Source of the DNA: Ascidiella aspersa
Lineage: Eukaryota
Direction of reading: 5' to 3'
Length of the DNA stretch: 64,000 bases
Assembly (NCBI GenBank): GCA_963924565.1
Contig: OZ004612.1
Location: forward strand, 12,276,001 to 12,340,000
Shown: positions 6,501 to 35,810 of the stretch, in pieces
Layout: the number at the start of each line of letters is the position of its first letter
Numbering within the stretch: position 1 is the first letter of the stretch
Translations under genes and position numbers: made by a program
The notes under the pieces: generated by a model
The model's database searches: none
The model's input: the letters and a program-made list of their open reading frames with translations, nothing else
Told to the model about the DNA's origin: nothing

Positions 6501-9500
6501 CAAAGATTCTGCGACTGAGGCAAGTAAGTTCATATTTGTTTTTTTGCAGTCATATGTGTATTTAGAGGACTTAGTAGTTGGTGTGGCTTGGTTTCACGAT
6601 TTCTATCGCGCAACAGTTCACCTTGATTTTCAATTGTTGTTGCGAAAATTTATCTGAATCTATCATGATTTGTCATATTTTGTTTTAGTCTTCGATAAGT
6701 GCAAATTGATCCAATTTAATAACTACAGTTAATTGCGTAGCAAAGACTAAATCTGATTGGCCTTCATTCCTTTTTTGTTTTAGAAGATACGGCTAAAAAT
6801 GCAAACTTCTACCAAAAACGCGCCAACACACACCAGACGGGCAAGATTAAAAAAAAAAACCTTAAGCATAAGCTGTGGTCAGCAGAACAAGATTATTTTT
6901 CGATGGAGATGCGATAAAAGCGACTCACTTTCTCGGTGTGCCGTCATCGTGGGGCGGGATGGCGACCACTTTGACCACCTTGGACGTGCGAAGCAGATCA
7001 AGCACCTCGTCGTGCGTCATCGTAGCCACGGCAACCTTGCAGATCTGCGCACAGGCGAAGCGCGCATAACACGTGTTATTTGGTAACGCAGTAAATGGGT
7101 AAACAATAGTACCCGAAAGAAGTTCTTTCAATACTTATTTATTTTATTCGACGTTACGGCTACCGATATAGCGCATACAATACGTAAAGTTTTGTAAACT
7201 TGAAATTGTTTTTATGAGGCATATATAAAAATAAACCACAAAAAATCTAAAATAACCGTAGCTTGTCTTTGAATTTGCGTCGAGGTATATTATCTCTTTT
7301 ATGGCGTTTTGTGCAAATCGGGAAATGAGTGCATTTACGCTCATAAACTATTTCTATCGCAAGCAACATAAATATTCGAAAAGTGCTGCAACATTCCATT
7401 ACCTAGAATTGATTTCACTAGGATTAGCGTAGGGTCAAAAAGGACGGCCATATTACACGTTACTTCCATTTTTTTTCGAAAAATACGGCGCTTATGCAAT
7501 GAAACTTCTTGCCTAATACACCACTCATAACTCTTATAACCCCCAAAACAGCGAGATTACCTCGACTAGGCGACTGCTTTGCCTCAATCCGTCCTGAAAT
7601 GCCTTCCCGTCGGAGAGTATTCCCTCATAGTTGACGTTGAATCCCAGCTCGCCCCGGTTGTTTCTGTGCAGCTGACGGTAGATGGTCTCCGAGCCTTTGG
7701 TGAAACGTTCCAGTCTGCAAGCACAATTGCTTCGGTAAGGAATGGCGCACCGTATACTGTTTTGTGGCGTATTACTAACCAAGGGGTTGTGGGTGCGAAC
7801 TTGAGTGCAGGCGATTTGCTAGTTAAAACTAATTTATTTTTATGCGTGGGAATGAATTTACTCCGGGTGAAAAAAGAGTCCTAATTTTTGTTTTTGTAAG
7901 ATGTGCGATACGCAAAACCACAATGTTAAAGATAAAATGCTCTGAGATTCTTACTTCAAACTATACGAGACGAATATTTTAGTTGCGAGTTTCAAATAGG
8001 TATTGGCTAAGCCGTGCTGTTCCAAATTATACGGGGTTAAATAGCTAACCATGGCACGATACAACCATATCGACAATTTCTGTTCTGCCAGTGAAACTAA
8101 CGGAAAAAAGTGTTAACGACTTTCAACAGAAATTTGGTCGTGTCGAGTTTACCGCCAAAAAATTACTAAAAGAGTAATTATGTTCAAATTTTCAGAGGGT
8201 CTCAAAAAACCTTGTAAATGTGTTTCTCGTAAGAATGAACTTTTCCGACAAAATCGTCGGTCAAGCTGGGCTTCATAAACACCATACACAATCGACCAAC
8301 CTGACGATAATTTCTTCGCGGGAGTAGACGTCGTCGGTCTGCACGGATAGGCGTTCGCCGCGCCCGTAGTAGACGTGCAGGTCGCGCTTGTAGCAGCCGC
8401 GCTCAGCAGGGTCGGCCACAGGCGGTGGAACCGTCCACCCAAGCACCGCCTGGCACGGAATACTGAAGATGAGCTGACGTGAGGCGATCTCGACCAGGGT
8501 AAGCACGCAGTCGCTCATGCCCATAAGGCAGGGAACCACTTCCGGTGAGCTGAAGAGGGCAAAATAAGAAGGTTTGAGTTTGGGTAGAACTATATTTTCT
8601 TGTTTTGTTTTTGCTATAATGCGTTGTTACTTGGTTACTTTTTCTTTAATTTTTGGTGTTTTATTGTATTTTTATTTTTTAATTTTTGCGCGATTTCATT
8701 GTGTCGATTAATACCATTGTAGCAAGAACCTCACAATCTTTTTGGATCAGGTCAAGTTGAAGGGCCTCAGGGCTAATTCAAAAGTAGGCTTATAGGGGTG
8801 ATTAAGAGCATCAGGTAAAAATCGAAATTAATCAGGTAAAAATCGCAAACTATTGGAAAAATATAGATTTTGTGAAGCAGATTATACAGCATTGACCTGA
8901 GTTCCATTTACCAACAATAAAATCCTAAATAGAAACTTACACAACATAAAACAGGCGAAAACATGTCTTTAGGGTCAAATGCTCGTTGTATAATGCAATA
9001 AAAGTTTGTTTTCGACTTGCTGCCATGTTAAGATTAAATATATTCACTGGTTCCGAATCAAATCTTGTATTATTTTCATTCTATCCAAAATTCGACAAAA
9101 TGCTGGTGGCCAGTTGGGGTGTGCTAAACATCTGAACGTCACACTATTTTAATCCACAAAGTTTCACATAAAAATAAAATCCAACCCCAAAATACAGTTA
9201 ACGTACAATCAACAAAATTCCACCCAAACAATACAGTTTCAACCGCACCACTAATCAAGCATATAAACAACCGCCACCAACCCCCAAAAAACTCACTTGA
9301 AGTCTGTGACGCTGACGTGCCACGAGAGGGCGCCCCTGCTGAGCAGCTCGGGCGTGGGTCGCGACTTCTGCTTTTCGCGTCCCCCATCGCGAATGCGCCG
9401 CGAAGCGCCGAAGGGGAAACGGCCGAAGTTGGGCTTGCCCTCCCGACCGGCCTGGCTTGAATGGTTGCGGTGGAGGTCGCGTAAATACTCCTGGCGAGTG

Positions 9501-12500
9501 TTCATAGCCATCGCCTGTTGGTGGATAACAGAGGCTCGGTGTGAGTTTGAGTGTTGGGAGAGCGATTATGTTTACGCACAAATAGAGTTATCTCCACCAG
9601 GCAACATATTAAAAGATAAAAATCGCTCTACTGGTGTAAACGAGGTTAAAAACCTACGTTTCGGCAGCAGATACCAGCTGGCCTCCTTTAACCCTAAAGA
9701 GGTCAGCCGAATCTGCTGCCGAAACGTCGGTTTATAACTTCGTTTACACCAGAATAGCGATTTCTATCTATGTTTACGCAAAGTTTACATTTGAAAGCCA
9801 TCTTGTATCCTGGACTGTTTCATAAAGTCCGAAACTGGTAAATGTCAATGAGGAAAACAAGAGTAATATAATTTTTTCAACTTCGAGTTCTGCATGTTTT
9901 TCTTGATTTTTTTATTAAAATCAAACCTGATTTAATACGAAGGTTTTGGGAATTTCATTCAAGCGACATGTTCTATATTTCTTAAATTAGATCTATTAAA
10001 ACTATGAATCATGACAGTATTGGTTATTTCAATTTTAACAGTCTTGTTTTTTCAATTTTTTTTGAGAGTTAGGAATTTTTCTTTGAGAGTTTACCGGAAT
10101 TCCTATCCGTTTATACAACGCGGTGTTAGTGAGTCGGTAAAAGATACGATGATATATGTTTTAACCTATAAACGGATTTAACGAGTTGAGTCACAAAATT
10201 GCACAATTTACATTTTACAGGGTAATTCCTGAATAACGAAAAACTCCACGAAAAAGAATTGCAAAAATCGCAAAGTTTTTTCAAAAAGCTGTAAAAAATA
10301 CAACAGAGGAAATTTCATCGAGCAACGCCTTTCGATTCGTCGCAGGCAGGAGTAAAACAACAATGACAACGCCCAAAAACGTACCTTGAATTTGCCGGCC
10401 TTGTGTACCATGTTCTCGCCGTTGATGATCTTGGTGAGCAGGAACTCGCGGAACGAGGGCGACTTGGGGAACATGCAATTGGCCGGCATAGGCGGACCGA
10501 AGCGAGGGATGCTGCGCGAGCGAGTCACCGCCACCCTGGAAGAAGAGATCGCGGTTAGCTTTAAAATGAAGGCCCCTTGCGTCGTTTACACAACCGCTTT
10601 GCTGGCCAAGCACTCGGTTCTATGACATGTCGGTCAAAGCTGGCTCACGAGCAAAAATATGCCAACTTTTGGTTTCATTAACAACATAAATAACAACTTT
10701 TGCACCTAAATTTAATTGTGAAGCAGGTTTAAAATATAACTTTTATCATAAAGTTTTGTTTAATCAGCAAGCATAAACGAAATAGTCGAAAATACCCATA
10801 TTTTTTACAGTTTTTTAATTGTAAAACTTTAAAATATGCCAACTTTCGGGGCAATGTCTTGAAAACACATTTAATTTTTTTAATTAAACATAATTCGGAA
10901 AAAATTAAAGAAAAAACTTGAATATCTCTAAAAGTCTAAAACAATGCCAAGAGCTCAGTATCAGGATATGCATAGTAATTAGACCTAATGCAATAATGTT
11001 GACAGACAACAGTAATGGGCACGCAAAGCGTAATTTTGGGTGGTCAGTCGTAGTTTGTGCGGACATTTAAAAAGCGTGACAGAATTATTGTCTGCTTATA
11101 AGGATATATTGCTTTGAGTTTATTTTGTCCATTTTAGTCAAGCAGACGGAAATTAAGAAAATAGGCCAGCTGCACTTAAAACGTCAAAAGGAAAACGCGT
11201 AAGAAACGCGGATTACCTTATATGTCGTAGGAAAAACAACACTTGTGTACAAGAAAAACTATCGTAAGGCGAAACTGGAGTTGTGATTTACAGTAAAACG
11301 TTATTAATTGGCAGAATGGAAACTAATAAACGAATATAAATCTAATAAACGGATCCGTTTTGTTACGTTAAGTACCTATAGCATGTCTGGCTTGTGCAGG
11401 GCTGGTGTGCGCGAATCACCAGGAAGACGTGCTGGAAGTGCGAGCGGATGTTCTTCGGGTTGAAGGGCTCCGATCCCGGCTCTTGGAAGACGATCGTCAT
11501 GATGTCGTTGCCGATGTGGCGCTTCCGGAGGAGCTGGGTGGAGGAGGAAGAAAAATTGAAAGACCAATTACAAATAAAACTCCTAAAGGTGGTTTTGGAG
11601 GAATGTAGAATGGGATAACTGGTAAACTCGATTGTTGTAGAATGTAACTATAGGGCAGGGTTTCTTAACCAGGGTGCTCGTACCCCAAAAGGGTGCGAGA
11701 AGTGTTCCTAAGGGGTGCAGGGGTGCTGAATCAGACACAGAAAATGTATTACTGTCATTTATTTATTTTTTCAGTTAAATGTTAAACAGACTCACATTTT
11801 GGTATTGCGTTACTGTGTTTCAATTACTTGCATAAACATAAAAATACAATGGTTTTGTTGTTTAAGAAATTGTACAAAGGGGTACAATAATTGGCTGGTG
11901 ATTTGAAAGGGGTGCAGCAAGAAAAAAAGGTAAGAACCACTGCAGTAGAGCTAGACAAAAAAGGCACAATGCACTTGAATACTTTAGTCGGGACACAATG
12001 GTGTGTTGGATTAGGTCTATAGAAATATTAGAATTATCAATACCACCTTTATTGTTTGGGATTGCTTTTTTTCCCTTGTTAGTACCGTACATAAAACGAG
12101 ATTTCTATGCGTAGGCTTGAACTTGAATTTGGTTTAACGAAATTTGAACCAAACTAATTACTACTATTCAACGACGATGACGGAAAAACATAGAAGTTTC
12201 TTTGTTTTATTTTTGTTCTATGGGTAGTTTGTTCTATCGGGCGATTATGAAGGAGCAAAGTCAAATTAAACACATATATTCACAGGCCTTCTGGCCTACG
12301 CAAGCGGAAAGAGGGTATTCACCTGCTGTCGGTTGTTGGGGGTGTAGGGAAGCATCGTGGACACGTGGAACATGATCTTGTAGTCGCGGAACTGGGTAAA
12401 CACCGACTCCGTTCCGGTCGAATCCGCTGAGGGTGAAAGAAAGAAAATACAACAAAACTATTTTATTTGCTTTATGACATTTAGGTAATTTAAAAATTTA

Positions 12501-35008: not shown

Positions 35009-35810
35009 TCGCGTTGGCACACGGCTAAAAATACCACCGGCTGTTGGTGTTCGCACTGATCGCGTCTGGGCCGTGCGCGGGCGCTGGCGCGTGTCCGTGA
35101 CGTCATGGCTTCCGTTTTCTCATCACGCTTTGTGGGTGCTCGTTTGTGACGTCACGCGCCAATGTCGCGAGGCAGCTGGAGGCTGAAGAGAGTTAAGCAA
35201 GGAGAAGGACAACGCTAAGCCCACATGATTAAGGAGTTGTCTGATGGTTTGCCGGCTTGCTTGCAAGTTTACGGATATCGAGTTAAAAGACAATAAAAAG
35301 GGATATAAACTGCTGCTACCAGGTATAGTAATTTAAATCAAAAAACAGCATTTCTGGTAATTTTAATTCTTTACCGACGTTTCGGCAACCTATGCAAGTC
35401 ATCTTCGCCAGAGTGAATGACACCAAACGCTAGTACAACACATGGAAAACACACACATGTTTTTTGATTTCTATTGAAAAGGGATGTGTAGGGTAGGCTT
35501 TCTGATGAAATATATTGTCGAAGCAAATGTGTACAGTAGAGTTTCTTGGTCGCAGAAAACCTTCCAGACCTACAGTTTAAAAATTCTTTTTTTAAAGGTT
35601 GCAATTCTAAATAGAGGTAAGGACATGAAAAAATTTGCGTCTAAACCTTGTTTAAAAAGCACTGTTTTTAACTTATACGTTTCCAGCTTTCCAATAGGCC
35701 CAACAACGAAATCAGATCCGTTTTCCTGAAAAATAGGCATATATTGCAGAGAAGTCTTAAACAAAACGACCTTATCAGCGGTCCCCGAAATAAAAATCGT
35801 CAGTATAGAG

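Follow-up and report, generated by a model that had tools for sequence, protein, structure and literature searches.

The insertion and its surroundings

Within the window, by which is meant the whole 64-kb stretch of DNA that was analysed, a 190-bp insert (9579-9768) lies in an intron of a minus-strand RapGAP-domain gene, between two copies of a 12-bp direct repeat, TATGTTTACGCA (9567-9578 and 9769-9780), that has no third occurrence in the window. The host features and the parts of the insert are the following.

9294..9514, minus strand: exon of the RapGAP-domain host gene downstream of the insertion; thin RNA-seq cover, first mates on plus
9515..10384, minus strand: host intron, 870 nt, GT..AG; the adjoining exons join in frame and the upstream one matches Pfam Rap_GAP
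9567..9578, no strand: left copy of the TSD, 12 bp, read from the sequence; the TSDs of the family's two-armed copies are mostly 12-14 bp
9580..9685, minus strand: left arm, pLTR truncated at its 5' end, tail present, in the same sense as the host pre-mRNA; 96/106 columns identical to family copy L011
9580..9613, minus strand: tail (34 nt) within the left arm, made up of 5' codons from the element ORF, ending at the family's distal 3' end
9686..9687, no strand: 2-nt filler at the head-to-head junction; family junctions are blunt or have 0-4 nt overlaps or short fillers
9688..9771, plus strand: right arm, pLTR truncated at its 5' end, tail absent, antisense to the host pre-mRNA; 78/85 columns identical to L011
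9690..9732, plus strand: hammerhead motif of the minimal type I, carrying the changes G5A (9696) and U7A (9698), read from the sequence; the motif is intact in family copies
9769..9780, no strand: right copy of the TSD, 12 bp, read from the sequence

Positions 9614-9690 pair with 9695-9769 around a 4-nt loop, ACCC (9691-9694), and both this fold-back and its 12-bp flanking repeat are as an earlier note on the sequence had described them, except that the arms there called near-perfect agree in 66 of 77 columns (86%) and have unpaired changes. The predicted fold of the hairpin, at -107.4 kcal/mol (z -14.5), is matched in stability by none of 200 shuffles, and the hairpin of the pre-mRNA strand is also predicted to be strong, at -115 kcal/mol. 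The element starts at 9579/9580, with its tail at 9580-9613, and not at 9614, so that the distance to the in-frame splice acceptor is 99 nt for the hairpin, 64 nt for the insert and 52 nt for the TSD. The tail matches the stretch that opens the 790-aa Met-initiated ORF of a full copy of the family, L076, described below.

The left arm contains stem II, GAAAC, a GUA triplet and the 3' strand of stem I. Its likeness to the family begins with the GAGG that closes the core (9685), C3-U4-G5-A6 being missing, and as the arm starts after CUGA the pre-mRNA strand has neither the core nor stem I. The right arm, which stops at the family's proximal end and has its final 3 nt (TAT) in common with the right TSD copy, reads AACC (9690-9693), CTAAAGA (9694-9700), stem II (9701-9720), GAAAC (9721-9725), GTC (9726-9728) and GGTT (9729-9732), and in intact copies the predicted cut is between the equivalents of 9728 and 9729. 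Of the two back-to-back hammerhead motifs that the earlier note proposed, the right one is there as it was spelled (CTAAAGA, GAAA, GTC, GGTT) and does have the G5A change, although the change of U7 to A had gone unmentioned; the supposed more decayed version on the left falls away, its core and the 5' strand of stem I being absent.

G5A would inactivate a hammerhead. Neither arm would be expected to cut, since the left has no core, the right has G5A and is antisense to the pre-mRNA, and the predicted hairpin would lock up the two of them; nor does either arm end at the predicted ribozyme cut. A descriptor search of the window gave no intact hammerhead core on either arm, and Rfam scans of a window arm and of an intact family copy returned generic hairpins below the gathering score and no hammerhead family. 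Both core changes are found together in only one of 10 matches with G5A, this being the window's own CTAAAGA core, and as they allow pairing between the right arm and the junction (TTTA-ACCC-TAAA), a change templated by the hairpin is a possible cause. A G5A subfamily that is still transposing was considered and rejected, its 10 matches having no derived background in common.

Four to five rare substitutions are common to the left arm (9580-9685) and the right arm of L083, an insertion of complex structure with two tails that lies 3.1 Mb away (G000:C6:9177000-9182000, arms at 2201-2430). An exact 23-mer of the left arm occurs in just these two places, and the window's right arm does not have the substitutions where it overlaps, a pattern that may stem from ectopic gene conversion or from the use of two different templates. 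A second minimal hammerhead-like motif of another family (core CTGGCGA, stem II, GAAAC-GTC), at about 35370-35415 on the minus strand, is probably another PLE remnant.

We take the host gene to be SIPA1L-like from its likeness (RapGAP and a PDZ-like exon), the computed match being to Rap_GAP only and the PDZ-like exon having none in Pfam, PDB or Atlas. The earlier placing on the SIPA1L sense strand, about 100 nt from an acceptor, stands as regards a minus-strand Rap_GAP gene and a distance of 99 nt, with SIPA1L as a putative name. A candidate branch point, CTCAC, picked by eye, is between the TSD and the acceptor, outside the insert. Contigs of one sequencing run (X1) cross both junctions, and a contig of another (X2) crosses the left junction on a different flanking haplotype; with the left junction on different haplotypes in two runs, more than one chromosome carries the insertion. 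The 15 joints listed, which leave 12 others aside, include no empty-site joint, flank depth in the raw DNA run being about 2-6. In the RNA run, about 6 in 100 of which was read, exon depth is about 0.5-2.8, no reads fall in the unique intron bins, and those over the insert carry family alleles. The host exon has an in-frame indel polymorphism between haplotypes at 9408 and 9422 (+3, -6 nt).

The parent family

A search of the 309-Mb genome, in which the window is G000:C6:12276001-12340000, with the right arm gave 671 first-look candidates, of which 40 were scored, yielding at least 43 matches, and in other copies the motif is AACC CTGATGA GGTCAGC TGGTATCT GCTGCC GAAAC GTC GGTT. The intact core, 36 nt and exact, has 143 copies in the genome, and a reversed control has none. 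With seven bases of the core left free there are 204 matches; among the first 100 listed, 72 by eye have CTGANGA and 4 have G5A, and the remaining core changes in these 100 are scattered over other core positions. Family copies have the CUGANGA, GAAA and NUH elements, helices I and II and palindromic 15.2-16.2 of a minimal hammerhead (min-HHR), together with an internal bulged U in helix II, and a hammerhead descriptor found 3 matches in 16 loci as against 0.0 in shuffles. The monomer fold of the intact motif is no more stable than shuffles (z -1.05), a result that carries no weight, being what is expected of a min-HHR.

Upstream of the pLTR end, copies continue into coding sequence for an RT and an endonuclease. 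The full copy L076 consists of an inverted 5' tail, a pLTR with the hammerhead, an open frame of 815 codons and a second pLTR, so that it has two direct hammerhead cores 2633 nt apart; from the first in-frame ATG, which is located in the tail and 82 nt after core C3, its ORF is 790 aa. The RT matches RVT_1 at 34 bits, above the cut-off of 29.6, and has YVDD and ADKG motifs. The C-terminal 129 aa have no Pfam GIY-YIG match, keeping in mind that homologues reach PF01541 above its cut-off and that L076 shares 42% identity across 812 aligned columns with a protein that has a Pfam GIY-YIG domain, the GxxY-x-IPCxxC-xx-YIG region being aligned. Residues Y718, C722, C725, Y729, G731, H744, H761 and H767 are kept in at least 90% of the aligned rows of a 43-sequence alignment, and L076 has the CCHH motif and the two Cys between GIY and YIG of this type of endonuclease. 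Motifs and homologues together point to a GIY-YIG domain. The linker between RT and endonuclease (residues 640-712) has no Cys, while 9 of the 43 aligned rows have 3-4, and a PDB search with the ORF gave no match. From the domain layout and the features given in PMC8557442, the family appears to be of the Penelope/Poseidon type.

In L076 an ATG within the hammerhead core opens an upstream frame of 25 codons (oriented 1686-1770) whose stop comes 1 nt short of the main ORF's first in-frame ATG; from the core onward the main frame, too, is open, with no Met. Reinitiation or an intron in the pLTR could explain this arrangement.

The earlier note's association of the locus with Penelope-like elements, a family minimal type I hammerhead, a TSD and an inverted pLTR duplication is supported. 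The genome-wide arm search that it suggested, for intact CTGANGA copies and for linkage to RT and GIY-YIG frames, has its answer in the 143 exact cores and in L076: the family core, CTGATGA, is intact and the RT and GIY-YIG coding sequences are linked to it, so that the grounds on which the note would have been refuted do not apply. Its view of the insert as one of a small, non-coding ribozyme-bearing mobile family has to be given up, the copies being truncations of an autonomous RT and GIY-YIG element, as follows from their variable 5' ends that extend into the ORF and from each inverted copy having its own junction.

Identity of the insert

Very probably the insert is the 190-bp stump, two-armed and dead, of a Penelope/Poseidon-type element, likely resulting from cutting and copying at both strands. 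It has the inverted 5'-truncated copy, the tail at one end and the TSD that mark EN+ PLE insertions, and the genome has hundreds of copies of the family and one intact copy with RT and GIY-YIG. Its asymmetric ends, the variable arm lengths and junctions and the RT linkage are not those of a MITE or other DNA transposon, and it is not a non-LTR retrozyme, being inverted rather than tandem and having no complete motif. The hammerhead belongs to the pLTR of the parent element. Decay since insertion amounts to about 8-10%, and the insert is likely carried along in the intron as a neutral passenger; the locus is ordinary transposon debris, locally inert, and its interest is carried by the family statistics.

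Other identities for the insert have to be weighed against this. It would be most surprising if it were a separate non-autonomous, non-coding ribozyme element, retrozyme-like or MITE-like, that multiplies as a fold-back hairpin, even though short fold-back copies with TSDs of 11-14 bp are common and animal retrozymes are argued (bioRxiv 10.64898/2026.07.22.740005) to be derived from PLE pLTRs. Junctions vary from one insertion to the next, and the window junction recurs in none of those examined; arms extend into the RT and endonuclease ORF with variable 5' ends; the tandem monomer array by which the same preprint defines a retrozyme is absent; and the CTAAAGA core of the window is a single one among 10 G5A matches. 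Co-option of the insert, with the pre-mRNA hairpin serving as an ADAR or Dicer substrate or tuning splicing and with the hammerhead core selected against, is only slightly less improbable. The predicted strength of the pre-mRNA-strand hairpin 99 nt from the acceptor and the presence of the insertion on more than one chromosome are in its favour, yet drift has brought the identity of the arms down to 86% and left changes unpaired, the family as a whole has scattered core changes, and the candidate branch point is outside the insert. The mutated core is moreover on the antisense strand. The earlier note had expected core mutations here, as an active ribozyme would cut the pre-mRNA, but the arm on the pre-mRNA strand has no core to mutate, so that selection against self-cleavage is unsupported, and the occurrence of G5A in 4 of the first 100 listed matches, among other changes, weakens that expectation further, as does the finding that single min-HHRs cleave to no detectable extent in vitro (PMC4209133).

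Two-armed insertions and their origin

Pairing of arms was counted in a set of 84 loci selected by the exact core only. These include 33 head-to-head pairs, of which 25 have both outer ends classifiable and 8 were left out as unclassifiable, and all 25 classifiable pairs have one tailed and one tail-less end (p 3e-8 at 0.5). Single-armed copies, counted without 7 segmental duplicates and without all paired, tandem and full-length loci, are by eye 20 tailed to 19 tail-less. Over all locus sets, the window included, 53 of 56 pairs are tailed plus tail-less, the 3 exceptions (2 tailed/tailed, 1 tail-less/tail-less) having no clean TSD. A TSD of at least 10 bp accompanies 19 of the 25 pairs as against 3 of the 39 single-armed copies (Fisher p 2e-8); the TSDs of pairs are mostly 12-14 bp, and in 6 of the 25 pairs that obey the rule the exact TSD is shorter than 10 bp. 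At a three-state site the alleles of the two arms agree in 32 of 32 pairs (0.38 expected). The 5' reach is longer for the tailed arm in 19 of 53 pairs and for the tail-less arm in 31, with differences of up to about 1.8 kb, and the head-to-head junctions are mostly blunt or have short overlaps or fillers. Several arms start at TTAA just before stem I. Being the sole end of 19 of the 39 single-armed copies, the proximal end behaves as a start site.

Starting from what the window itself displays, namely the family, the TSD, the arm ends and the junction, we infer the following course. The enzyme of the element would nick the two DNA strands at points about 12 nt apart, and from each nick RNA of a single source copy would be reverse transcribed. 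There would be two start sites, 34 nt apart, one for each nick. Both cDNAs would stop after about 85-105 nt and would then be joined head-to-head, and the filling of the gaps would create the TSD. That the pair statistics are explained by priming at both nicks, with one start site for each, is probable, with some reserve. In PMC11167929 the Anolis Poseidon protein is described as cutting and extending both strands in vitro, two internal start sites bound the tail and a dimer of the protein is predicted; the same source gives the start site as not different between top and bottom strands, which counts against one site per nick. A stricter version, with one complex, a fixed stagger of 12-14 nt, exactly one cDNA per start site and germ-line cleavage by the hammerhead, is tentative and falls somewhat short of an even chance; if true, it would account for the head-to-head inversion, the one-sided tail and the occurrence of TSDs with two-armed copies.

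The second arm could instead have arisen within the same family by self-priming, the cDNA of the tail end snapping back (for instance at the palindromic TTAA) and copying itself, with the copying then stopping at the proximal site and the tip of the hairpin being trimmed later. This is the published reading of head-to-head junctions (PMC3846280); the tip in the window is palindromic and pairs down to a 4-nt loop as that model expects, several arms do begin at TTAA, and the allele concordance of 32/32 fits it too. It is nevertheless unlikely, as nesting of the arms has no fixed direction (19 versus 31 of 53), arm lengths can differ by as much as about 1.8 kb, blunt joints, short overlaps or fillers make up most junctions, both arms of L192 start at the same base with no loop, and the proximal end occurs alone in 19 of the 39 single-armed copies. 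Priming from both nicks is the preferred reading.

Possible cleavage by the family ribozyme

The position scale used here sets core C3 at 0 and the first base after C17 at 36. Filtering the genome for arms that start at 31-48 yielded 50 matches, of which 26 were kept as independent true ends and 24 dropped as internal indels or duplicates, though L247, among those dropped, has by eye the look of a genuine end at the cut site. Fifteen of the 26 have their 5' ends at 35-38, a 4-nt interval of the 18 (p 1e-4 versus uniform, the interval being partly chosen post hoc); position 36 by itself has 4 of the 26 (p 0.054), and 5 are near 43. Among arms on C1-C4 selected by downstream sequence (n=87; 88 of 91 listed places recovered, 1 duplicate removed, several reference copies used), 7 start at 35-36, to be set beside 9 over 25-34 and 7 over -15 to -6 within the same 87. 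A seeming accumulation of 5' ends around -57 was set aside as partly an artefact of an indel in the reference copy.

Both arms of L192 begin at 36. Six of 10 host-joined stubs that start at 36-38 have a repeat of at least 10 bp. The 5'-end pile fits run-off at a cleaved RNA end and so, as far as genomic ends can tell, possibly self-cleavage in vivo; stalling at stem I may be another cause. In Anolis carolinensis, by contrast, PMC11167929 reports no RNA reads that end at the ribozyme cut. L192, L208 and L209 (G000:C4 at 3.969, 4.032 and 4.101 Mb) are a perfect loop-less palindromic insertion with a 13-bp TSD, tripled by segmental duplication, the arms of which start at the first base after the predicted cut.

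Relation to known elements

A head-to-head inverted truncated copy with a one-sided tail and a TSD has already been published (PMC8557442, PMC3846280). The EN+ PLE insertions described there (PMC8557442, Fig. 2 legend; Adineta Pen2a_Av, PMC3846280) resemble the present ones in the head-to-head inverted pLTR with TSD, in the tail of 30-40 nt at one end only, in the overlap of pLTR and tail with the ORF start, and in strong 5' truncation. They differ in that here the arms have no ORF body and measure only about 85-105 nt; the Adineta TSDs are 8-10 bp, compared with 12 bp here and 12-14 bp in the family. The one-tail rule is counted here as 25/25, whereas the papers have 'often' or 'optionally'.

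The Poseidon element of Anolis carolinensis, PAc, of the Penelope/Poseidon clade (PMC11167929), is alike in its RT with a C-terminal GIY-YIG, in a hammerhead just before the 5' region of the ORF, and in two 3' ends one tail-length apart within the ORF start. In PAc, however, the ORF starts at stem II and the start sites are 111-118 nt in, while here the ATG is in the tail, 82 nt after C3, and PAc differs too in the RNA ends mentioned above, the genomic 5' ends piling up at the cut in the present case. The min-HHRs of PMC4209133 are found in pLTRs of metazoan PLEs, including pairs on opposite strands, and share with this family a helix I of 4-5 bp, a long helix II, palindromic 15.2-16.2 with no loop 3, and the CUGAUGA/GAAA core, a U3-A8 covariant being described as well. 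The bulged U in helix II sets the family apart from them, nearer to the D. virilis variant, and the window motifs are broken. Non-LTR retrozymes (bioRxiv 10.64898/2026.07.22.740005) are alike in being non-coding, PLE-derived and of type I hammerhead, but are tandem monomers with at least two complete hammerheads, unlike the one-off inverted stump here, which has none complete.

A strict count of tailed and tail-less ends and a genomic pile-up at the cut were not found in the literature searched (main texts of mostly open papers) and may be in print. The steps of PLE insertion and the role of the hammerheads are given as unresolved in PMC8557442, and the locus is one of many natural records of such insertion. 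A genome that has an intact copy with a 790-aa ORF and a sharp end-pairing rule offers a system for distinguishing twin priming from self-priming, and also for tests of ribozyme cleavage in vivo.

Five further PLE families in the genome keep the core while their stems differ, one having the U3-A8 covariant. L268 (G000:C9:23486000-23495900) is a head-to-tail array of at least 4 units of another PLE family, three of them with open frames of 816 codons, and has the U3-A8 hammerhead variant; L265-L267 are further PLE families with open frames of 843-880 codons. L078 and L140 (G000:C4 at 21.75 and 19.85 Mb) are different insertions with an identical 13-bp TSD and similar flanks, which suggests that one site in a host repeat was used repeatedly.
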